This document shows, in pieces, positions 679-27,895 of a DNA stretch of 64,000 bases (positions are counted from its first letter, which is position 1; every line of letters starts with the position of its first letter). The translations under genes were made by a program, and so were the position numbers. The DNA comes from an uncultured Acidobacteriota bacterium (lineage in GTDB: Bacteria > Acidobacteriota > Terriglobia > Acidiferrales > UBA7541): the NCBI GenBank assembly GCA_963697575.1, contig CAVOOP010000009.1, forward strand, positions 63,100-127,099, in the 5' to 3' direction. Under the pieces are notes generated by a model, which did not search any database, was not told the origin of the DNA, and saw only the letters and a list, made by a program, of their open reading frames with translations.

Positions 679-3509
679 TCAAGACGGCGGCTGGGAGTTT
701 TCGTCTTCGACTCCAGTCTCGACTTCAGTCTCGACTTCAGTACCGCTTTTGGCCACAGTCTCTCCCAACGGGGACGCGAATTCGGCCGCCGATTCGCAGG
801 GGACAATCGGAAGGACGGCGCGAACCGTAGGTCCTCGCCCGGCGACGCTTTCGATTTCGAAGGTGCCATCGAGCTGCTTGACGCGCTCGCGCATGCCCGC
901 GATGCCGACGCCCAGCCGTGCGTTGCGTCCCGGGGCATGGGGTTGAAGGCCGCAGCCCTGGTCCTGAATCTCGACGCGGACCTCGCCGTTTTCTTCGTGA
1001 CGCGTCAGCCGAATGGCGGCGATGCGGCTTCCGGAATAGCGATGAACGTTGGTGAGCGCTTCCTGGACAATTCGGAAAACGGTGGTTTCCACCTGCTGCG
1101 GCAAGCGGCCGAGGTTCTTATCCGCGATTCGATGGTTCGTTTCGATGCCGCTGCGCTCGGCAAAACCTCGCGCGTACCATGAGAAGCGTGGGGCCGAGGC
1201 CAGCTTCGTCAAGCATCGGCGGATGCATGAGATAGGAAAGCACGCGAACCTCGCGGATGGCGTCTTCCGCAAGCCCGCGGGCGGCATGCGAGGCCGGCTT
1301 GAACGTCCACTATTGCGATTTTCTCCGAAGGCATCTTCAAGATTGGCAAGGGTCATCTTCAGGGCTGCGAGGGTCTGGCCTGCGGATTCGTGGAGGTTGC
1401 GGGCGATTTGGCGGCGCTCGGTGTCCTGGGTGCGCAAGAGCTCCTGCGACAGGCGGCGGAGTTCTTCTTCGCTGTGCATCTGGCCGGTGATATCGTGCGC
1501 CACGCCGCGCACGCGCGCAGCGGAGCCGTCGCTCGCCGCGACGGTAGCGCCCCGCACGTGGTAGGCGCGCACTGTTCGACCGGGCAGGCGATAGCGGGTG
1601 AGGAATTCGAAGGGCTGGCATTGCGCGATGGAATCCAGAACCATTTGCCGGACCTTCTGGCGCGATCGCTGCGCAGGACATTCTCCCAAAAGCGTTCCAC
1701 GTCCCAGCGCTCATTGGAAGAAAAACCGTACATCTTCAAGAGGTGTTTGGAAAGAATGATCTGGCGGGTGGCGACGTCGTATTCCCAGCAGCCGAACCCG
1801 GCGATTTCCTCGGCTTGATCGAGCAGGGCCTCGCTGCGGCGGAGGCGAGTTTCTTCGGCGCGGCGTTCGGTGATGTCCTGCGACATGCCGGTGAAGCGTA
1901 TGGTTCGCCCCGCAGCGTCTACGTGCCGGAACGCGCGGCGTGCATCACCTGGATCTGCCCGTCCGCGCGAACGAGCCGGGCCTCATATTCGCAGCGGCAC
2001 GCTCTTGGCAATCGCGTCGTCGAGCAAGGTACGGAGCCTGTCGCGATCGCCGGGATGCACCAATTTCCACCAGGAGTCGAAGGAGGGCGCAGGCATAGAC
2101 GGATCCATGTCTGCCATGCGGAAGCGGTGAGTCGGACCAGTTGATGGCATTGTTTTCCAAGTCCCATTCCCAGCTTCCAATATTGGCGAGCGTTCGGCCT
2201 GCGCGAGCAGGGCTTCGCTTTTCTGGATTTTTTCCTGGGCCAGCTGGCGGTCGGTAATGTCCTGGGTGGCTCCCACGATCCGGAGCGGCTTGCCGGACTC
2301 GGAGAAGACCGGCGCAAAGCGGGTCTGGAACACGCGGACGGCGCCGTCTTTGAGCGTGCAGCGATATTCGTGTTCCTGGGGTTGGCGAGAAGAAATGGCC
2401 TGGGCCAGGAGATGACCTGGCGAACTCCCGGTCGGACGGATCGAGGAGTCGCGAACAGAATTCCTGCGTCAAGCGCAACTTCGCCGGCGGTCAATCCGCG
2501 AAGCCTGTAATATGTTTTCGGACCAGGTTACGGATCCGGCCCCTAGTCCCATTGCCAGCTTCCGAGATTGGCAAGCTGTTCGGCTCTGCGCAGCAGGGCC
2601 TCACTTTTCTGAATCCTTCCTGTGCCGAGTTCTTGCGCTCGGTGACGTCCTGCGTGCTCCCGACGATGCGGAGCGGGTTCGCCCGAGTCCGCAAAAAACC
2701 GGGACGAAGCCGCGTTCGGAAAAGGCGGACGGTTCCATCTTGGATGGCGCAGCGATACTCGTGTTCCGGGGTTGCCGTAGTCGAGAGACTGCGCGAGCAG
2801 CATTCCGGCATGTTCCCGGTCGTTTGGATGCAGCATTTCCAGACAACGCTCTGCGCTGGTTGCAACTTCGCCGGGCGCGAATCCATGCAGCCGGTAGAGA
2901 TTGTCGGACCAGACCACCGCGCCCGGTCTTAAAATCCAATCTCCCAGCTCCCGATATTGGAGAGCTGTTCGGATTCGACCAGCAGAGCCCGGCTTTTGCG
3001 GAGATTCTCTGTGGCAAGCTTGCGATCGGTGACATTCCGCGTCGAGACGGAGAGCATGCTGGCCCTCCGTGTTCGAGGCGGAAGCGGAACGATGCGGGTG
3101 ATAAACCAGCGGTCGCCCTCCGGCAAGTTCATCGAATATTCGATGCGCTCGGCGGCGCGCGTCTGACAAACGCGCTGCAATAAGTTGAGGAATGGAATGC
3201 AAAGTCTGGCCGGAACGATGTCCCGCAGTGTCTTGCCCCGGAGTCTTTTGCCGGGCGCGGCGAGGGGGCTTCATGCGAGGTCCACATGTGATCGATGGCA
3301 CCCTTAAAGTCGATGATGAAGACGAATTCACCGAATCGTTTGGCAAGCGCTTCGAGCGCGGGCGATGACGCGGCGTTCAGGTTTGCGATATCAACGGCAG
3401 TTGTAGCGGCGGATTCCGGGGTGGGAGTGAGTGATCGCGATATGCTCCGGTTCGCCTTGCGGCGTTTCCGGCGCCTTGTTCGTGCGGATTTTTTCGAGCC
3501 TGAGATCAC
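679..3509 (-). CDS. Multi-PAS sensor histidine kinase (HisKA_3 + HATPase_c), many apparent frameshifts
   Basis: ORF 679..1689 carries an H-box (TERRQIARNLHESAGQTLAAL) and ATPase motifs (VFRIVQEALTNVHRYS, DQGCGL, GVGIAGMRERV). Upstream, four PAS-linker copies (KSEALL.QAE..A..GSWEWD-like) recur about every 385 bp, near 1800, 2190, 2580 and 2965. They are spread over all three frames. GTG start at 3509. The gene lies directly upstream of the response regulator on the same strand. Confidence 0.8.
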
Positions 3510-4049
3510 TGCCTCCGTTGAGAGGACGGAAAGCGATCCACATCCACATTTTCTTTCGCGAGGCGGGTGGCTCCCAATCGTGCGTCGGGCGAAATTACAA
3601 GGAAAATAAGCTCGTATTACATCCTTGTCAATATCAAAACGTAAAAATAGACCAAAGAATTGCGGAGAGACGTACTGGGTCGGCGATGCCGAAGTACGGA
3701 GGAGGTCAGCAAGTACCGCAAAGCAAATGCCGTATTGTTCCGAATTGAAACTTGGTCACTTTAGGACTACGTTGGCGGCCTAGCTGGAAGGGGAAGTTGT
3801 CTATAAAAGGTCGTTGTGGGTTTCTCGCCTGGCAGGAAGTGGCGACAGGTTTACAGCGAACGAGGAAGAGGCTCCCGGCAGCTTTGAATCTGCGTCAGCG
3901 CCTGCCGGGCGAGAATGCCCTCAAAAAACAAGCGGTGACGTGCCGCTCTGGATTCCAACGGGAGGGACTGCGTACTGCGAAAAGCGAGCAGGACGTGAGT
4001 GAGTGGAAGTGTGTGCGTCAAGAGCCGCGGAATAGAAGAAGCGTGAATT

Positions 4050-7127: not shown

Positions 7128-8326
7128 ATGGCGCGCCTGAATTCCATTCGCCAGATCGTCCTGAAATCTACTTTGTTCGCTTGCGGTGTCGCCGGATTGG
7201 TGTCTGCGCCCGCGTTGACTGCCTGGGCGCAGCACGGCGGAGGGCATTTCGGAGGAGGCGGGCACTTTGGCGGAGGCGGAGGCCACGTAAGCGCGCCTCC
7301 AGCGCCCCATTTTTCGGCGCCGCCCGCTCGGATGCCCGTGCCCGCAGCGTCTGCCGGCGGGACGCACTTCATTTCCGCGCCGCCGTCACATATCGCGGCG
7401 CCCCTTCCGCTGAATCGGCCAAGCTTCGGGAACCATGTGACGATTATTCCGCCGCCGGTTGCAAGTGCGCCTCCACACACCGTGATTGGTTTTCCGCCGG
7501 CGACCGGTGGGGCGCGCATTCTCTCGACGCCGGGAGCGCTGCGAAGTTCCGGGGCGTTGAGCTTCTCCGGCGAAGGGCACGAGATTTGGCAGAATCCGGC
7601 CGTCGGAACTCCGGCGGCAGGATTTCATCGCGGATTTCCTATTTCGCCGATTTATCCGCGGCGGCCGATCTATCCGATTAGTCCGATTTTCCCGGTCTGG
7701 GGCTATCCGATTTTTGGCGGAGGGTTCTGGCCGGGATTCGGCTTTGGAGGATTGGGACTGGGCTGGGGATTGGGCTGGGATTCATGGGGTTGCGGCGCTT
7801 ATGGTGGCTGGGGATTCGGATGCGACGCGTTCTCTTACTACGATTCCGGATATGGAAATTACGGCTACGCATACAGCCCGGGAGTCTTGGAAGGGCAGAT
7901 CGAGTCGCAAGAACGGGCCTGCCATCTATGAGAATGCTCCCACGCCGGCCCCGCTCGTATTACGGCGGCGGAGAGCGGCAGCTCGTGCAGCTCTACATGA
8001 AAGACGGCAGCGAATACGACGTGACGGACTACTGGCTGGTGGATGACAACGAACTGCACTTCACGACCGTCGATGCGAACGGGAATCAGACTGAGCATGT
8101 GATCAGCTTCGATCAGCTCGATCTGCGGAAAACGATCGACGTGAATACGGATCGCGGATACCGGTTTGTGCTGCGGAACGAACCGATCCAGCAGTATCTG
8201 CAGGGCACGGAGAGCAATGCACCCGAGGGGACCGCGCCGGAGGGGCCGCTACAGCCGCCTGCGCCTTCGGCTCCGGCGGTTCCGGCGCAGCCCAATTCAC
8301 CTGCGCAGCCTCCGCAACCCAACTGA
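7128..8326 (+). CDS. Secreted Gly/His/Pro-rich protein with conserved C-terminal domain; about 2 frameshifts
   Basis: GGGAGGG upstream of ATG 7128. Signal peptide MARLNSIRQIVLKSTLFACGVAGLVSAPALTAWA, then a low-complexity body. After frame changes near 7905-7945 the reading continues YYGGGERQLVQLYMKDGSEYDVTDYWLVDDNELHFTTVD ... PAQPPQPN, with the stop at 8326. Confidence 0.6.
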
Positions 8327-8610
8327 CCGCGTTGCTGGCGCAATTGCCTGCGCTTTCAGCTCCGGCGGTTCCACCGCAGCGCGATTACCCGCTCAGTCCG
8401 CGCTGCCCAATCGACCTGCGCTTTTGGCTGCCCTGCGGTTACGACTCGGAGAGTTCCCTTGCTCGCTTCGCTCCGCTTCGGCCTTCAGCTCCGGCGGTTC
8501 CACCCCGGCCCGATGCACCCGCGCAGCCTGCGCAACCCCACTGAACCCGCACTCCTGGCTACCCTGCGGTTATGACTCGGAGAGGTCCCTCGCTCGCTTC
8601 GCTCCGCTTC
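8262..8610. repeat. Gene 3' end plus two diverged downstream copies, each followed by a REP-C-like hairpin
   Basis: TTCGGCTCCGGCGGTTCC...CTGCGCAGCCTCCGCAACCCAACTGA (8262-8326) recurs as TTCAGCTCCGGCGGTTCCACC... at 8355 and 8484 (period about 129). Each copy ends in CTGCGGTTAYGACTCGGAGAGKTCCCTYGCTCGCTTCGCTCCGCTTCGG. Confidence 0.75.
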
Positions 8611-15191: not shown

Positions 15192-16799
15192 GTGACGCTG
15201 GCGCTGGGGTATGAGCCGTTTCCCAAGCAGAGGCTGTTTCACGGCTCCGCCGCGAAGTACCGGCTGTTTGGCGGGGCGGCGGGGCCGGGGAAGTCGAAGG
15301 CGCTGCTGATGGAGGCGATCCTGCAGGCGCACGAGCATCCCGGGCGCGAACACGCTGCTGCTGCGGCGGACGTTTCCCGAGCTCGAGCAATCGCTGCTGC
15401 TCTACTTCAAGCGCGACGTGCCGCGCGAGCTGTACGAAAATTTTCAGGAATCGAAACACGTGGTCACGTGGCGGAACGGCTCGACCACGCGCTTCGGCTA
15501 TTGCGCAGCGCGAGAGCGACGTCTACCAGTACCAGGGCGCGGAATTTCTTTTCATCGGCATCGACGAGCTGACGCTTTTCACGCTGCGGCAGTGGCAATT
15601 TCTCACCAGCCGCAACCGTTGCCCGGTGCCGGGCGCGTTTCCGTGCATGGCGGGCGCGACGAATCCGGGCAACATCGGGCACGCGTGGGTGAAGGCGCTG
15701 TGGATCGACCGCGAGCCCGCGCCGGGGATGGAACATCCCGAGGAGTACGACGCAGCGGACTACGATTTCATTCCCGGCGCGCGTGGCGGACAACCCGATT
15801 TATGCGGGCGATGCAAATTATCTGAAGACGCTGCGGGCGCTGCCTTCGCATCTGAAGCGCGCGTTTCTCGATGGCGACTGGGATGTGTTCGCCGGGCAGT
15901 ATTTCGACCGCTTCGACTGCTCGCGGCACGTGGTGCGCGCTGAGCAGATCGACTGGAAGCCGTGGTGGCCGCGGTGGATTTCGATGGACTGGGGATTCGA
16001 GCATCCGGCGGCGGTGTACTGGCACGCGCAGGGGCAGTGGGAGGCGGCAGGTCACGCGGACGCGGGCGGCGAAAGGGCCAATGCGCAAGGGAAGGGCGTC
16101 GTTACGTACCGCGAATATGTGACGCATCGCACGCCGCCGCGGGAATTAGCGCGAGAGATTGTGGCGCGTTGCGTGGCGGGGAGTGGCAACAACGGAAGTG
16201 GCGATGCGGCGCGGGTGTTGGGCAGCGGCGCTGACCGATACGCTGGAAGAGAGATCCCTCGCTACGCTCGGGATGACAACGAAAACCAACGTCGCGGCGG
16301 ATACGAGCGAGAAAAAATCGACGCGATTTATCTTTCGCCGGATGCGTTTGCGCGGCGCACCGATGAGGCTTCGATCGCGGAGCAGATGGGCGATATTTTC
16401 GCGGCGGCGGGGCTGCCGCGTCCTGTGCCGGCCGATGACGATCGCGTGGGCGGTTGGATGCTGATGTATCAAATGCTCGATGCGGAGGAGTGGCTGCTCA
16501 CCGAGAATTGCGCCGAGCTGATTCGCACGCTGCCGAACCTGGTGCGCGATCCGGTGCGCATCGAGGATATCGAGAAGATGGACGGCGACGACGCGGCGGA
16601 CGCGGCGCGGTACGGGCTGAAGTCGCGCTACGGAGTGGGACGAGGCAGGCAGGGACGCATGCCGCTCGACCAGAGGCTGGCGGCGCGGGCGGTGTCGGCC
16701 GATCCGACGATTCGCGCGATCCAGGCGCGCAAGGCGCAGATCGAAGAGACGCGGCGCGTGCAGCCGGTGTCGTTTGTGCGGCGCCGGCGGTCGCCCTAG
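15192..16799 (+). CDS. terL: Terminase large subunit; 3 frameshifts (about 15345, 15510, 15780) and an in-frame REP-C insertion
   Basis: Walker A GGAAGPGKSKALL, Walker B LFIGIDELT, coupling motif MAGATNPGNIGHAWV. Nuclease part WISMDWGFEHPAAVYW ... DGDDAADAARYGL. Assembled from ORFs 15192, 15418, 15626 and 15783. Confidence 0.9.
16246..16290 (+). repeat. REP-C element inside terL, in frame (reads REIPRYARDDNENQ)
   Basis: GAAGAGAGATCCCTCGCTACGCTCGGGATGACAACGAAAACCAAC. The same element is intergenic at 27949, 28950, 29197, 37850 (inverted) and 40395 (inverted). Confidence 0.85.
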
Positions 16800-17202
16800 A
16801 GGCGGAGTGGATCGACAACTCGCGGGAAAGGCGCCTCGAGTGGAAGGCGCTCCGCGCCGGTTCTTTATGTCGGAGCTGAAGCTCCGACCCCCTAAAAACC
16901 GGAGTTCGCGTGCAGCCGGTGTCGTTCGTGCGGCGCCGGCGGTCGCCGTAGAGGCGGAGTGGATCGACAACTCGCGGGAAAGGCGCCTCGAGTGGAAGGC
17001 GCTCCGCGCCGGTTCTTTATGTCGGAGCTGAAGCTCCGACCCCCTAAAAACCGGAGTTCGCGTGCAGCCGGTGTCGTTTGTGCGGCGCCGGCGGTCGCCC
17101 TAGAGGCGGAGTAGATCGACAACTCGCGGGAAAGGCGCCGCGAGTGGAAGGCGCTCCGCGCCGGTTTTTTATGTCGGAGCTGAAGCTCCGACCCCCTAAA
17201 AA
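16756..17202 (+). repeat. 3 x 152-bp near-identical tandem repeat (terL 3' end + stop + REP-B)
   Basis: GCGTGCAGCCGG starts at 16756, 16908 and 17060. The copies differ by only a few substitutions. Confidence 0.95.
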
Positions 17203-23563: not shown

Positions 23564-24427
23564 CTAGCTTGGGTCGCCGGTGCGCGTGCCGTACGCGGTG
23601 CGTAGCGCGGGGGGTGGCGCTACCAGGCGCACTACCTGCTGCAGGCGCTCCGGCTTAAACGGCTTGGCCATGCACACGACCGCGCCCAACTGGTGACTCG
23701 TGGCGTAGTCGGCGGGCTGCGCGGCGCGCGTCATCAGGATTACGGGAACCTTCGCGAGCCGCTCGTTCTGCTTGATGATCACGCAAAGATCCTGGCCGGA
23801 CATGTCTTCGGCTTCCACTTCCGCGATGAATACGGAGGGAACCGTGGTGCGCAGAATCTCCAGCGCGGCTTGCGCGGACGGAACGGCGATTACGGTGTAG
23901 CCGTCCTGCTCGAGCATGTTGCGCATGGCTTCGGCGCTGCGCTGGTCCGGCTCAATGGCCAGCACGACCGACTGCCGGGCGTTTGAAGCTGCCGCCGAAC
24001 CCTGGCCTGCGGAAGCGGCGGGCGTCTTTCTATCGCCCTTGGCGTCTGTTTTTGCGGCAACAAACTGCACGGCTACGCCAAACCTTCCGTCGGGCTGCGG
24101 CACGATGCGCACGACTTCGGCGGGCTGGCCCTGGTTGATGGCGCCTGCCATCGCCGAGTACGGGAAAGCGACTTCGAGCATCTGCCCCTTCCAGTAGCCC
24201 GAAGATTTTGAGGTGAAGAGCAGGCCGTCGCGCGAGACGTCCACGCTCATGCAGACTTCTTCGAACGGCGCGGGCGCGTTGACGGCGCGAACGTGCACCT
24301 GAGCGGAAATCTTTGCCCGGCGACGGCGGCGGCGGTCTATGCCGCTCTGCGCCGAGTGGCCGGCTGGTCCCACTTGTCCCGCGGCCTTTGCATTCGGCGC
24401 GGCCGGGATGGTGGTGCTTGTGCCCAT
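23564..24427 (-). CDS. PilZ domain + receiver-like domain protein
   Basis: ATG 24427 with AAGGGGA upstream. PilZ motifs RRRRRRAK and DVSRDG. The C-terminal REC-like region (VLAIEPDQ ... SVFIAEVEAEDMSGQDL ... CMAKPF) appears to have Glu where the phospho-accepting Asp is expected (alignment by eye). Confidence 0.75.
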   Translation of the reverse strand: MGTSTTIPAAPNAKAAGQVGPAGHSAQSGIDRRRRRRAKISAQVHVRAVNAPAPFEEVCMSVDVSRDGLLFTSKSSGYWKGQMLEVAFPYSAMAGAINQGQPAEVVRIVPQPDGRFGVAVQFVAAKTDAKGDRKTPAASAGQGSAAASNARQSVVLAIEPDQRSAEAMRNMLEQDGYTVIAVPSAQAALEILRTTVPSVFIAEVEAEDMSGQDLCVIIKQNERLAKVPVILMTRAAQPADYATSHQLGAVVCMAKPFKPERLQQVVRLVAPPPALRTAYGTRTGDPS

Positions 24428-24535
24428 GAAATCCCCTTGAGAAGCGTGAGCGCGCGGTGATTGGTGCGGTTCGCCGGCTGGGTGCCGAATCACCGCTGCC
24501 TGGATAGAGTGGCATCGGGCGAACACGCAGCAAAT

Positions 24536-24655: not shown

Positions 24656-25780
24656 ATGCCAAGCACAGCAACGCCGGCGCTGGACGTCACGATTGGGCGG
24701 AAGGAAAGCGCGGTGCAGCGCCCGCAGCCACAGGACAGCGTCCGGAATGCCACGGATGACGAAATTCTTGGGCTGATGGCCGAAGCGGGGATCGACAGTA
24801 CGGCTGCCGCGGAGCGCGATGCCCGGGCGGACCGTGAATTCGATTCGGGTGAACCCGGCAGCGCTAAAGCTGTCGAGGGGCAACGCGGGCGGGAAGATGG
24901 CGCCGACACCGGGAAGACCGACGCTGGTGCCGGGCCCGATCCCGAGAAACTGCGCGCGGCCTATGAGGCGAATCCCGAGCTGCGGCAGGCTTGGGAGGAT
25001 GCGAAGGCGTATCGCGAAACCTTTGCCACGCCGGAAGACGCTCGGAACGCGACGGCCCTGCTGGCAGACCTGGATCGCATGGACGCTCTGTTCTATTCGC
25101 AGCGGCCCGAGGATCATGCGGAGCTGGCGCGCTCGATCGCCGCGCTCGATCCGGCGGCGTTCGCGTCGCTGGCGAAGGCCATCGGCGAGCAGGCGAGCAG
25201 ACAGGCAGCCCAGGGGGGAAGGAACTCCGCAGCGGCAACTGCTTCCGCGCCGAGCCAGGGGCAAGACAGTGCTGCTGCTCCCACGGCGGCGGAAATCTCA
25301 TCATCACAGGCGGAGTTCTTTCAGGCGGCAAACGCGGCGGCGGTGCAGGGCGTGCTTGACGCGATCGAGACGCAGGTGGAGCGGCTCCTTCCGGAGGGCG
25401 CGTCGAAGAGCGCGCGCAACCGCGTGGTGGGGGAGATCTACCGCGAGCTGGATTCCACGCTCGGCGCGAACCGGCAACTCTCGCAGCAGGTGCGCGAGGC
25501 GTTCCGGTCGGGCGCGCTCGACGACAGCCATCAGCGCGCGATTGTCTCGCTGATCACGGGGCGGGCGCGGCAGGCGCTGCCGGGCGTGGCCAAGCGCGTG
25601 ATGAACGAGTGGACCTCGACAATCGTCGCTGCAAACCAGGACCGCCGCGCGCGGCAGCATGCGGCGGAACGGCGCGTCGACATTGCCGGTTCGAGCGGCG
25701 GCGGCGAAGGCCGGCGCTCAATGGCGCCACGCGACATCGACTACGCTCGCATGTCCGACGGCGACATCTTGAATCTGTAG
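24656..25780 (+). CDS. Scaffolding-like protein (acidic, Ala/Gln-rich, helical)
   Basis: Intact 374-aa ORF between the portal-like and capsid genes, with GGAGG upstream. The call rests on composition and position only. Confidence 0.45.
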   Translation: MPSTATPALDVTIGRKESAVQRPQPQDSVRNATDDEILGLMAEAGIDSTAAAERDARADREFDSGEPGSAKAVEGQRGREDGADTGKTDAGAGPDPEKLRAAYEANPELRQAWEDAKAYRETFATPEDARNATALLADLDRMDALFYSQRPEDHAELARSIAALDPAAFASLAKAIGEQASRQAAQGGRNSAAATASAPSQGQDSAAAPTAAEISSSQAEFFQAANAAAVQGVLDAIETQVERLLPEGASKSARNRVVGEIYRELDSTLGANRQLSQQVREAFRSGALDDSHQRAIVSLITGRARQALPGVAKRVMNEWTSTIVAANQDRRARQHAAERRVDIAGSSGGGEGRRSMAPRDIDYARMSDGDILNL

Positions 25781-25795
25781 TGCGACGATGATCTA

Positions 25796-25827
25796 TTGAC
25801 CTCCAGAGGGGCGGTAGGCTAGCCTAC
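25796..25827 (+). promoter_or_regulatory. TTGACC -35-like box plus 14-bp perfect palindrome GTAGGCTAGCCTAC upstream of the 25855 cassette
   Basis: TTGACC at 25796-25801. Palindrome at 25814-25827. It lies in the 74-nt gap after the scaffold stop. Confidence 0.4.
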
Positions 25828-25854
25828 AGACGCAAAGTGCGAGAGGGGATTTGA

Positions 25855-26061
25855 ATGTCCACTTTCCGGCCTTCTTCTCCGCGTTCTGTTTCACTTTCCG
25901 AGCTGCCCGTCAATTCATGGATTGCCCTTACAGAGGATGAGAATCAGGTCATTGCTATCGGATCGACATATGAGGAAGCGGTCAGGAAAAGTGAGAGCGC
26001 CGGCGTCTCGGATCCGCTGATCATTAAGACCCCCGGGGAGTGGCTTCCGCTTTCGGTGTAA
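25855..26061 (+). CDS. Small DUF5678-like protein (68 aa)
   Basis: NSWIALTEDENQVIAIGSTYEEAVRKSESAGVSDPLIIKTPGEW matches the DUF5678-type pattern from memory. The stop lies 6 nt before the next gene's start. Confidence 0.55.
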   Translation: MSTFRPSSPRSVSLSELPVNSWIALTEDENQVIAIGSTYEEAVRKSESAGVSDPLIIKTPGEWLPLSV

Positions 26062-26067
26062 CTGCGA

Positions 26068-26493
26068 TTGCGCTATACCTGCAAGGACTATCCGACCCGA
26101 GATGGAGAAGCGGATTGGTGCTGTGTTTTGCCGGTCCAGCTTTCAAATCCAAAGAGGCATTCCCCGCCTTCGAAAAGGTTCGAGGCCTTAATTGACTCGG
26201 GCGCGTCGCGTTGCATTTTTCATTCCCAGATTGGCAGGTCGCTGGGATTCGATATTGAAAGCGGAAGGGAAGAGAGAACCGTTGGAGTGTCCGGAAAAGC
26301 CACAACCGTCTACATCCATGGCGTAGGCTTGTTTGTGTGCGGCGGCATCATCACGCTGAAGGTGGCTTTTTGCGAAGACTTGCCAATCGCAGGACTGTTA
26401 GGGCGGCGCGGTTTTCTGGAGCAGTTCAGGTTCACCTTCGACCCATCATCAATGCCCCCGGTGTTTGACCTGGAAAGAATCTACCGCGTTTAG
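26068..26493 (+). CDS. Retropepsin-like (clan AA) aspartic protease
   Basis: TTG start coupled to the upstream stop. Catalytic-type motif ALIDSGAS and C-terminal AGLLGRRGFLEQFRFTFD, typical of bacterial retropepsin-like domains. Confidence 0.7.
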   Translation: MRYTCKDYPTRDGEADWCCVLPVQLSNPKRHSPPSKRFEALIDSGASRCIFHSQIGRSLGFDIESGREERTVGVSGKATTVYIHGVGLFVCGGIITLKVAFCEDLPIAGLLGRRGFLEQFRFTFDPSSMPPVFDLERIYRV

Positions 26494-26616
26494 TTTCTCT
26501 CGTCCCGGTCAAGCCTTATCGACCGTTCTACCCGTCCGTGAAGGACACCCCCGCACCTGACTGGCCGCGCGCTCGCGCGGTGACACGAAATCCATTCCAA
26601 AGGGGAATTCCACCAC

Positions 26617-27895
26617 ATGGCACAAATGCAAAATGCGCAATCGGTTGCGCTGCAACTGGAGAAGGTGCGGGACAAGCTGCCGCTGCTCTACGAGCGGGAC
26701 GACATCCTGCTCACGATGATCCAGCAGCGCGGCGACGTGGAACGCGTCAGCTCGCGGAACATGCGGCTTCCGCTGCAGATACGTCCGGGAGGCAAGGCCG
26801 GCCTTGCGAACATGGACGGCGGGGACCTGGGCCGCGGGTCGGGAACCGTCTACGACGTGGCGCAGGTGACGCCGGTATTTTTCCGGCACGCCGTGGAAAT
26901 CACGAAGCTCGTCGAGTACGCGTCGAATGCGCCGGAAAAGGCCATCGAGAACGCGGCCAAGCGCGAAGTGAAGAACACGATGGCGCAGTTCCGTTCGTTT
27001 CTCGACAAGGTGATGCAGACGAACGGCAACGGCGTGCTGGGCACGGTCGGCTCGATCACCACCAGCGGCCTGCCCAGCGGCGTGGCCGCGCAGTTCGGGA
27101 TGGCCAAGCCGCCCGGCGCGCAGCTTTTCTACTACAACCAGACGATCCAGGTGTACGACCCGACGCTCACCACCAATCGCGGCTCGGCCAACATCCTGCT
27201 GGTCGATCCGTTCAATTCGCTGATTCAGGTGGACAGCTTGCCGACCGGCACCAGCGTGAACGACTTGATCGTCCACGACGGGCTCACCGGCGCGCAGCCC
27301 GTGTCGCTCTTCGGCATTTTGTATCACCAGACCAACGCGACCACCGGCACGTGGCTCAACCTGAACCGCGCGACGTATCCCGTGGAACTCGCCACGCCCA
27401 ACGTGAACGGCGAACAACTCGGCGATCACGCCGGGAGCGGTGCGCCTTGCGATTAACAAGGTGCGCAAATCGTTGGGCATCGAATCAGGTGAGCGAAACT
27501 CATCGCGTACACGGCGCTCGAGCAGGAGCACCAGTGGGAGCAGCTCGGAGTGACGATTTCGCAGATCATCAAGGAAGGAGCGGGCGGGCGCGCGAGCGAT
27601 CTCGACCTGCTGTTCACGGGCGAAAAAACGATGGCGGGCGTGCCGATCAAGTCGAGCATCAATGCCAACTCAGACGCGCGTGGATTTTCTCGATCTTTCG
27701 CACTGGGGACGCGCGGTGATGCAGGACATCGATTTCTACGATGTGGGCGGGCAAACCGTGTTCCCGATTTACGGGGCAAGCGGCGGCATCGCCGCGGCGT
27801 ACATCTTCTACTTCGTCACGGGATTCCAGGTGTGGAACGACTCGCCCCGCAGCGGCGCGTACATCAACAACCTGGCGATCCCGACGGGGTACTAA
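26617..27895 (+). CDS. Major capsid protein; about 3 frameshifts (about 27415, 27495, 27670)
   Basis: ORF 26617..27456 plus continuation frames (AITPGAVRLAINKVRKSLG; LIAYTALEQEHQWEQLGVTISQIIKEGAGG...; RVDFLDLSHWGRAVMQDIDFYDVGG...NNLAIPTGY, stop 27895). About 425 aa. Position after the scaffold gene. Confidence 0.65.

Follow-up and report, generated by a model that had tools for sequence, protein, structure and literature searches.

A free-standing pair of genes for a small protein and a retropepsin-like aspartic protease as an accessory cassette in the head module of an Acidobacteriota phage

A stretch of 64,000 nucleotides (nt) from an uncultured Acidobacteriota bacterium (contig CAVOOP010000009.1), hereafter called the window, contains a cassette of two genes between a scaffold-like gene and the major capsid gene of a phage head module. 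All coordinates of the window are given as positions within this whole stretch, position 1 being its first letter. The upstream gene of the cassette codes for a small protein of 68 amino acids (aa) with a weak resemblance to the family DUF5678, and the downstream gene, the TTG start codon of which is located 6 nt past the stop codon of the former, codes for a retropepsin-like (clan AA) aspartic protease of 141 aa (Table 1). The two open reading frames (ORFs), a TTGACC box and a perfect 14-bp palindrome, GTAGGCTAGCCTAC, had been pointed out between the scaffold-like and the capsid gene in a preliminary description of this DNA, and all of them were found at their places. On the left, the cassette starts directly 3' of the TAG stop codon (25778-25780) of the scaffold-like gene. 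On the right, it ends just 5' of a conserved element, GTCCGTGAAGGACACC, which precedes the capsid gene; this edge, at ~26531, was derived from an alignment with three sister phages without the pair (L098, L089 and L090). The GC content across the pair is 0.52-0.55, compared to 0.64-0.72 in the scaffold-like gene on the left and 0.60-0.67 in the capsid gene on the right. Sequence searches retrieved 83 homologues of the protease (E<=1e-3) as well as 34 homologues and, thereafter, 1329 relatives of the small protein, which indicates that both ORFs are more than chance, and proteins identical to those of the window are encoded on three independent metagenome contigs. ORFs in antisense orientation within the pair, such as the one listed in Table 1, were taken as non-coding shadow ORFs.

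The distribution of the pair among related phages was determined by searching IMG/VR, the intact capsid protein serving as query. This search yielded 18 contigs of sister phages with capsid proteins that are 80-97 % identical. Except for a few short or divergent contigs without one of the flanking genes, these sisters show the same order of portal-like gene, PilZ-REC gene (minus strand), scaffold-like gene, capsid gene and a gene for a 197-aa protein. The pair was present in one of the 18 contigs (L085/L104, which are the same contig), and it was missing from L088, the capsid protein of which is 97 % identical. From the end of the scaffold-like gene to the start codon of the capsid gene, L098 has 137 nt, and L089 and L090 have 175-176 nt; the junction of these three sisters is empty. 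In others, the junction measures 250 to ~1800 nt and is occupied by different cargo, namely a secreted-looking protein of 232-258 aa encoded on the minus strand (L091, L092, L093, L095 and L100), a DPBB_1 protein together with a 254-aa protein (L096), an IS110-family transposase (L105) or short unknown inserts (L088 and L103). The scaffold-to-capsid junction is a cargo hotspot.

Presence and absence of the pair were also detected side by side in environmental DNA. In five bog or peat metagenomes, the region of the pair was recovered at contig depths of 4-9 compared to 20-200 for the capsid gene, which in metagenomes is common to many variants; the depths, taken from Logan contigs, are word depths of the assembler and are evidence of presence rather than of absence. 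Contigs joining position 25780 directly to position 26531, and thereby skipping 750 nt, were found in the peat metagenomes X3 and X4, and a contig joining position 25776 to position 26531 was found in the bog metagenome X1. The joined, pair-less form had a depth of 46 versus 8.9 for the pair-bearing form in X1, and the depths of the two forms were similar in X3 and X4. These direct joints identify the segment 25781-26530 as a 750-nt presence/absence polymorphism within one phage population. We thus consider it very probable that the pair is an accessory mobile cassette and not a head protease.

Table 1 Features of the cassette and its surroundings in the window.
Feature	Position	Strand	Remark
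Accessory cassette, 750 nt	25781..26530	+	Present or absent as one unit
-35-like box TTGACC, putative promoter of the cassette	25796..25801	+	TTGAC enrichment across loci
Perfect 14-bp palindrome covering the -10-like box	25814..25827	.	Possible operator
-10-like box TAGCCT	25820..25825	+	18 nt after the -35-like box; aligned upstream regions
Degenerate GC(A/G)TCTAA motif	~25831-25838		Reads GACGCAAA
Shine-Dalgarno-like box GAGGGG	25843-25848		Ahead of the small gene
Small partner gene, 68 aa	25855..26061	+	ATG start; weakly DUF5678-like
Retropepsin-like (clan AA) aspartic protease gene, 141 aa	26068..26493	+	TTG start
Codon of Asp43 of the protease	26194-26196
Antisense ORF within the pair	26024-26305	-	Taken as non-coding
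Scaffold-like gene, 374 aa	24656..25780	+	Left flank; assigned by position only
Major capsid protein gene	26617..27895	+	Right flank; broken by four 1-nt insertions
Terminase gene	about 15200-16800		Split
Gene corresponding to the 1264-aa tail-like protein of L085	30746-33710		Split
PilZ-REC gene	23564-24526	-	Between portal-like and scaffold-like genes
tRNA-Leu(GAG) gene	28130-28217	-	Downstream of the capsid gene
Gene for a 197-aa protein	28331-28924		Downstream of the capsid gene

Homologous cassettes were collected by scanning one genome per prokaryotic species (185,579 species genomes), which resulted in 200 confirmed loci. Pairing and gene contexts refer to the best 80 of these 200 loci, and the gene calls in the fetched loci are simple ORF and GC3-based (GC content at third codon positions) calls. 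The best 80 loci stem almost entirely from metagenome-assembled genomes (MAGs) of Acidobacteriota (Terriglobia). The protease gene is immediately preceded by a co-directional small gene in 79 of these 80 loci, and the remaining locus is cut by a contig end. Homologues of the portal-like, scaffold-like and capsid genes of the window were found near none of the best 80. The survey of gene neighbourhoods that the preliminary description had recommended thus revealed a free-standing pair rather than a linkage to head genes. Beyond the pair, no gene family is common to more than six of the 80 loci; the immediate neighbours are ordinary housekeeping genes, such as those for TPR proteins, DHDPS, penicillin-binding proteins, gyrA, sigma-70, M17 and M20 peptidases, menaquinone synthesis, TGT, dnaB and rpsO. 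One lineage (L107-L109, about 7736-8360) carries the cassette between lptB (ABC_tran) and rpoN (sigma-54), within an lptB-rpoN-hpf-rapZ cluster that is otherwise highly conserved. In each of the 71 loci that allowed the comparison, the cassette has a lower GC content than its flanks (0.525 versus 0.590, Wilcoxon p=2e-13). The small protein and the protease co-evolve according to their pairwise distances, with a Mantel r of 0.71 that was reached by none of 999 permutations. As judged from these comparisons, the pair is a conserved, autonomous and horizontally mobile cassette that resides mostly at ordinary chromosomal sites outside of phages.

The assignment of the 141-aa protein rests on profile searches, conserved motifs and a predicted structure. 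In Pfam, the protein matched Asp_protease_2 (PF13650) above the gathering threshold (27.5 bits versus a cutoff of 24.3, E=5.3e-6, residues 36-113) and gag-asp_proteas below the threshold; in NCBIfam, there was a weak match to TIGR03698 (clan_AA_DTGF, E=0.0015). The two databases returned clan-AA families only and no known head-protease family, and no PHROG family, including those of head proteases, was matched at E<=0.01. The homologues of the protease are mostly 138-142 aa long and span the entire query, which argues that the long reading from the TTG codon is right; gene callers had picked a 121-aa version of the protein. Five residues, D43, G45, A46, L111 and G112, are invariant in an alignment of 35 family members. 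They belong to the catalytic motif ALIDSGAS (A-L-I-D43-S-G-A-S) and to the second signature GLLGR (G-L111-L-G112-R), which is part of GLLGRRGFL...FTFD and aligned to the LLG of human DDI1. A flap-like segment, G73-x-x-G76, is conserved in the family as well. The mean column identity across many species is 56-67 %, a range that covers both the alignment of the protease and that of the small protein. In a sequence profile search of the PDB, DSGA and LLG were aligned to the matching motifs of DDI1 (3s8i/4z2z). The AlphaFold2 (AF2) model of the protease, built on the 35-member alignment, had a mean predicted local distance difference test score (pLDDT) of 92.5 and a predicted template modelling score (pTM) of 0.85, and a Foldseek search of the PDB with this model gave 47 matches at E<=1e-3. 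Two of these matches are pepsin-type enzymes (renin and plasmepsin X) and all others are retropepsin-type, the top ones being 5c9f (APRc), the proteases of HIV-1, EIAV and XMRV, and the RVP domain of DDI1; the retropepsin-type matches also include the proteases of FIV and SIV. Taken together, the Pfam score, the invariant motifs and the fold matches of the predicted structure confirm the retropepsin fold that had been read from the motif, and the protein is a retropepsin-like aspartic protease with regard to its modelled fold and its catalytic motifs. An exhaustive profile search extended the family to 2561 clusters (50 % identity) at E<=1e-3, and the clusters listed are stand-alone proteins of 69-184 aa.

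The small partner protein was more difficult to place. Its similarity to DUF5678 (PF18929) amounts to 17.3 bits versus a gathering cutoff of 23.2 (E=0.0042), with W-I-A-L...G-S-T-Y-E-E-A...P-L-I-I aligned to positions 8-48 of the 49 profile positions, and 13 of 25 relatives matched the same family at E<=0.01 (best 4.2e-4). Weak matches were also obtained for the small partners of L086 and of a second pair in L081 (see below), but all of them are sub-threshold. The protein is therefore at most a weak, remote relative by sequence and no formal member of DUF5678; the label 'DUF5678-like' given to it beforehand stands as a similarity and not as a family assignment. Since DUF5678 is a family without known function, membership would explain nothing yet. 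The relatives within the family of small proteins are 64-76 aa long, and their alignment contains 16 invariant columns, including S21-W-I-A-L25 and the separate invariant residues K58, P60 and W63 of a conserved C-terminal tail, K-T-P-x-x-W. The N-terminus is variable and disordered. The AF2 model (pLDDT 74) shows a beta-beta-alpha-beta core preceded by the disordered N-terminus; a Foldseek search of the PDB with this model gave nothing better than E=1.6, and a sequence profile search of the PDB gave noise only (AcrIIA15, E=1.8). No match was found among the PHROG, NCBIfam and PADLOC models, and the top 120 matches of a profile search with the alignment of the small proteins were all close relatives.

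Comparison of the upstream regions suggests a conserved promoter that belongs to the cassette itself and is independent of the late structural genes. Of 77 loci, 46 have the sequence TTGAC at 40-90 nt (mostly 52-60 nt) ahead of the start codon of the small gene, compared to 3.8 % of background windows, and the aligned upstream regions share the consensus TTGAC(c/t)-N17/18-TA(g/c)(g/c)CT-N5-6-GCrTCTAA in unrelated contexts. As the promoter was recognised by comparison of loci only and a generic sigma-70 scan called no promoter at the cassette, we regard it as putative. The palindrome was less informative. Arms of 7 were reached in 6 of 100 shuffles, which makes it marginally unusual; it is present in the window and in L085 and partially in L001 and L006, and upstream palindromes are not enriched across the loci (mean arm 4.83 versus 4.65 in shuffles). 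Of the separate regulation proposed in the preliminary description on the basis of these two elements, the part resting on the TTGACC box was thus strengthened, and the part resting on the palindrome was not, the latter being not clearly non-random. The motif GC(A/G)TCTAA, found 5-6 nt past the -10-like box in most cassette loci and in unrelated contexts, is degenerate in the window and may mark the start of transcription or a regulatory site.

The spacing and the start codons of the two genes make their translational coupling, which had been suggested for the window with its gap of 6 nt, plausible across the family. Among 69 loci, 26 have a 4-nt overlap of the stop codon of the small gene with the start codon of the protease gene, and in 42 of the 43 others the two genes are 0-10 nt apart; except for one outlier, all 69 loci fall within a spacing of -4 to +10 nt. 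The protease genes of these 69 loci start with TTG in 28, GTG in 28 and ATG in 13 cases, so that 56 of 69 (81 %) use a start codon other than ATG. Metatranscriptome contigs (25970-26125, 0-3 mismatches) run from one gene of the pair into the other, and the neighbouring structural genes are hardly covered.

Relatives of the pair were detected in 3 of 2.9 million IMG/VR contigs. As IMG/VR contains few phages of Acidobacteriota, these three viral matches understate the carriage by phages to an unknown extent. In L086 and L087, the capsid proteins of which are 66-68 % identical, a distant copy of the pair lies directly after the portal-like gene. In both contigs (6878-8787 in L086), the protease gene of this copy is split by ~1.3 kb with membrane-looking ORFs and the small gene is intact. 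The pair of L081, with a protease that is 70 % identical, lies in a phage-like region with tail-fibre-like and muramidase genes, and the pair of L106 adjoins pectate-lyase-like tail-fibre genes. L081 contains a second, very divergent pair, consisting of a 94-aa protein (2965-3249) with a weak match to DUF5678 (E=0.077) and, overlapping with it, a 160-aa RVP/gag-asp gene (3203-3685) with the motifs ALIDTGAT...LLGRD; its GC content is 0.51 versus 0.586. This second pair suggests that the arrangement of a DUF5678-like and a retropepsin gene is more general than one family. The phage-like region of the same contig also codes for a 328-aa protein (7518-8504), the C-terminal domain of which is weakly similar to Hint/intein domains (Pfam Hint E=5e-4).

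Decay of the cassette was observed mainly in the protease gene. Split protease genes were found in L085, L013, L057 and L064, and in L050 (4283-6408) the two genes are separated by that of a Mutator/IS256-family transposase (445 aa, minus strand); in decayed copies, mostly the protease is broken or uncoupled and the small gene is intact. Among the defence-candidate models of PADLOC, PDC-M08B was matched by 31 of 35 members of the protease family (best E 9.8e-5). PDC-M08 is an untested two-gene candidate embedded in BREX, DISARM or type I restriction-modification loci, and in the supplements of the respective preprint it is listed as FAM_03167>>FAM_00414 without annotation (bioRxiv 10.1101/2024.01.29.577857). 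The present pair resembles this candidate in being a two-gene cassette whose second gene is recognised by the model, but the match is weak and the first-gene model is unmatched; as the A component is absent, the pair is not a demonstrable member of PDC-M08.

With regard to the surrounding phage genes, the window is colinear over ~15-35 kb with the viral contig L085 of IMG/VR at 81-91 % nucleotide identity, and the large terminase matched phrog_979 (E=3e-40) on the intact, 600-aa copy of L085. The capsid assignment is supported by weak but consistent matches to phrog_14242 (3.9e-5) and to capsid_maj_Podo of NCBIfam (4.3e-7). No Pfam, PHROG or NCBIfam match was obtained for the 374-aa scaffold-like and the 874-aa portal-like protein, and searches of PDB sequences with the portal-like and capsid proteins gave no informative match; because of these missing family matches, 'portal' and 'scaffold' are labels of position and synteny. 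The synteny of the scaffold-like gene between the portal-like and capsid genes is kept in related viral contigs. Hence, of the two flanks named in the preliminary description, the capsid gene received weak support and the scaffold-like gene is identified by position and synteny alone. The capsid gene of the window carries insertions at 27409, 27482, 27495 and 27672 relative to an intact ORF of 424 aa in the 98 %-identical contig L082. The terminase gene and the counterpart of a tail-like protein of L085 are also split in the window. Either indel errors of the assembly or decay of the prophage would account for these broken genes; both ORFs of the pair are intact.

Some further genes of this module were recorded. 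The protein encoded between the portal-like and scaffold-like genes combines a PilZ domain (Pfam PilZ 1.6e-5) with a response-regulator receiver domain (Response_reg 2.2e-17), and 16 of the 18 related viral contigs have its gene at the same position. The gene resembles a phage-borne signalling gene of the cyclic di-GMP or two-component type inside the head module. The tRNA-Leu(GAG) gene lies within the region colinear with L085 and could be a phage-encoded tRNA or the remnant of an integration site. The 197-aa protein has no family match, and its gene is kept downstream of the capsid gene in related phages. Locus L001, which looks chromosomal but may be a related prophage, codes for a homologue of this protein (71 % identity) at a distance of 3.4 kb downstream of its pair.

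Bacterial retropepsin-like proteases have rarely been characterised, and the known examples, APRc and RimB, are specialised. APRc represents the soluble domain of an enzyme that is anchored in the membrane and processes outer-membrane autotransporters. The structures of APRc (RC1339 of Rickettsia conorii; PDB 5c9b/5c9d/5c9f) were the best match of the protease model (Foldseek E 6e-5 to 2e-4, TM (template modelling) scores up to 0.61-0.70), and both proteins consist of a single domain with the clan-AA fold, in which each chain supplies one catalytic Asp, so that a homodimer is to be expected. The identity is only 16-19 %, however, and the protein of the window is a stand-alone, cytoplasmic-looking protein of 141 aa with an obligate small partner encoded upstream. 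Among small soluble bacterial enzymes, the closest functional precedent is RimB of the rimABK operon of Pseudomonas fluorescens, which is likewise encoded in a fixed operon with partner proteins. RimB is a small soluble A2-type aspartic protease with one essential catalytic Asp; it is linked to both RimK and RimA and acts on RpsF, from which it trims polyglutamate (PMC11957791). In contrast to RimB, the loci described here have no rimK or rimA nearby, and the partner is a DUF5678-like protein of 64-76 aa within a mobile cassette. Retroviral proteases and the RVP domain of DDI1/Ddi1 share with the present family the DSGA/DTGA loop, the second signature of two hydrophobic residues followed by Gly, and superposing folds, but they are parts of polyproteins or multidomain proteins, whereas the present proteases stand alone. 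In its genetic organisation, the cassette resembles type II toxin-antitoxin (TA) systems and phage morons: a small upstream gene is followed by a coupled, weakly initiated enzyme gene, the two have their own promoter, and the copies are patchy, of low GC content, located at variable sites including prophages and decayed mainly in the enzyme gene. It differs from type II TA systems in that the small protein lacks a known antitoxin DNA-binding fold, and no known TA toxin is, to our knowledge, an aspartic protease. Our literature search found, within the library covered, no paper on the pairing of a DUF5678-like protein with a retropepsin; the RimB paper and the PADLOC preprint were the only publications retrieved that are relevant to bacteria or phages.

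Based on these features, the explanation that we favour, as a whole with slightly better than even confidence, is a phage-borne moron with a TA-like or defence-like mechanism and an aspartic protease as effector; for the mechanism taken by itself, our confidence is somewhat less than even. The cassette has landed as a moron in the cargo hotspot of a temperate tailed phage of Acidobacteriota. The protease would act as effector in the form of a homodimer, to which each subunit would contribute the Asp of one DSGA motif. The small protein would be made first and in excess, because translation of the protease mostly begins at a TTG or GTG codon and relies on coupling to the small gene, and would bind the protease as an inhibitor, a substrate or a specificity factor and thereby restrain or direct it. 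The pair would thus behave like a type II TA or abortive-infection module, expressed from the prophage in the lysogen apart from the late structural genes and to the benefit of the lysogen or of the element itself. Dimerisation, catalytic activity, neutralisation by the small protein and a toxic or defensive phenotype are what we infer for such a module. The preliminary description had considered a two-gene moron, possibly TA-like or defence-like, inserted in the head module. The anatomy of this moron was borne out by the separate promoter, the exact 750-nt indel, the low GC content and the free-standing pair, and the TA or defence role is the part that we infer.

Several observations weigh against such a role. 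No homologue of known phenotype supports toxicity, neutralisation or defence, and there is no enrichment of defence or TA genes among the immediate neighbours of the cassette. By AF2 and Foldseek, the small protein resembles neither a DNA-binding fold nor any other fold in the PDB, which leaves an autoregulation of the classic antitoxin type unsupported, and the palindrome is specific to a lineage and not kept family-wide. The bias towards disruption of the protease gene is weak (about 5-7 cases versus 1), many of the genomes are MAGs assembled from long reads and contain indel errors that may account for part of the decay, and the protease gene has twice the length of the small gene. As to the PADLOC candidate, the window protease matched PDC-M08B at E=0.019 only, and PDC-M08A was matched by none of 25 small proteins. 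Finally, the RNA across the gene junction consists of a few short contigs, which may as well derive from DNA carry-over or from a near-identical copy elsewhere.

These points have to be weighed together with other explanations of the pair. A non-toxic regulatory protease, with the small protein as substrate, precursor or specificity factor in analogy to the action of RimB on RpsF, seems unlikely to us but is the main rival; cleavage in the variable N-terminal part or in the K-T-P-x-x-W tail could, for example, release a signal. The characterised bacterial retropepsin-like enzymes are specialised regulators and not toxins (RimB, PMC11957791), and the disordered, variable N-terminus and invariant C-terminal tail of the small protein, the tight co-evolution of both proteins and the stable residence of many copies among housekeeping genes agree with a regulatory function. 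For such an enzyme, however, a fixed context and a distribution following the species phylogeny are expected, whereas the contexts differ at nearly every locus, the GC content is always below that of the host DNA, copies are carried as phage cargo, and the distribution is patchy, with 200 loci in 185,579 species genomes. Carriage by phages could also reflect a benefit to the phage itself, with a protease that cleaves a host immunity or regulatory protein for counter-defence or host takeover and a small protein that keeps it inactive until it is required. The occurrence as a moron in at least three phage lineages (window/L085, L086/87 and L081; possibly L106) and the promoter separate from the late genes speak in favour of this explanation. 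It is nevertheless quite improbable, as most copies are chromosomal without phage genes within 6 kb, the 3 viral contigs in IMG/VR compare to 200 genome loci, and no similarity to known anti-defence proteins was detected, the AcrIIA15 match being noise.

A role in head maturation, in which the enzyme would process the capsid or scaffold protein as a retropepsin processes Gag, is hardly conceivable in the light of the sister phages. The preliminary description had considered a clan-AA protease recruited for this purpose, and two observations agree with that idea: the pair lies between the scaffold-like and the capsid gene, which is the place of the prohead protease in HK97-type phages, and the fold is shared with the enzyme that matures retroviral capsids. 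It could not be upheld. Seventeen of the 18 sister contigs lack the pair, among them phages with 93-97 % identical capsid proteins such as L088, and three of their junctions are essentially empty; pair-less variants co-exist with pair-bearing ones in the same samples, at higher depth in X1 and similar depth in X3 and X4. The copy of L086/L087 is located at a different site and has an interrupted protease gene, nearly all homologous pairs have chromosomal, non-phage contexts, and capsid, portal and scaffold homologues are missing near the best 80 of the 200 loci. The putative promoter is of an early type, the GC content is low, and PHROG head-protease families were not matched. The absence from sisters, the pair-less variants and the chromosomal homologues together indicate that the pair has no part in head maturation, and we rejected this function. 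The chance that the pair is a non-functional remnant or consists of chance ORFs is practically nil, although the prophage of the window is frameshifted in its capsid, terminase and large tail-like genes. Both ORFs are intact and conserved at the mean column identity given above, with invariant catalytic residues and a confident AF2 model, and identical proteins occur on three independent contigs; this conservation refutes a remnant.

Our results reveal a large family of stand-alone proteases of ~140 aa, each accompanied by one small partner gene and a putative promoter of its own and moving between chromosomes and prophages. For the annotation of phage genomes, a clan-AA protease gene between scaffold and capsid genes should not be equated with a prohead protease before sister genomes have been checked. 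The cassette is widespread in soil Acidobacteriota, with at least 200 species-level genomes, and temperate phages trade it as a moron. That it represents a new class of TA or abortive-infection module, with a retropepsin effector checked by a DUF5678-like partner, appears rather doubtful at present; in that case, divergent pairs such as the second one of L081 would point to a broader superfamily of these modules. If the TA-like or anti-phage role proposed above is true, aspartic proteases would join the effectors of TA and defence systems, and DUF5678-like proteins would gain a function.

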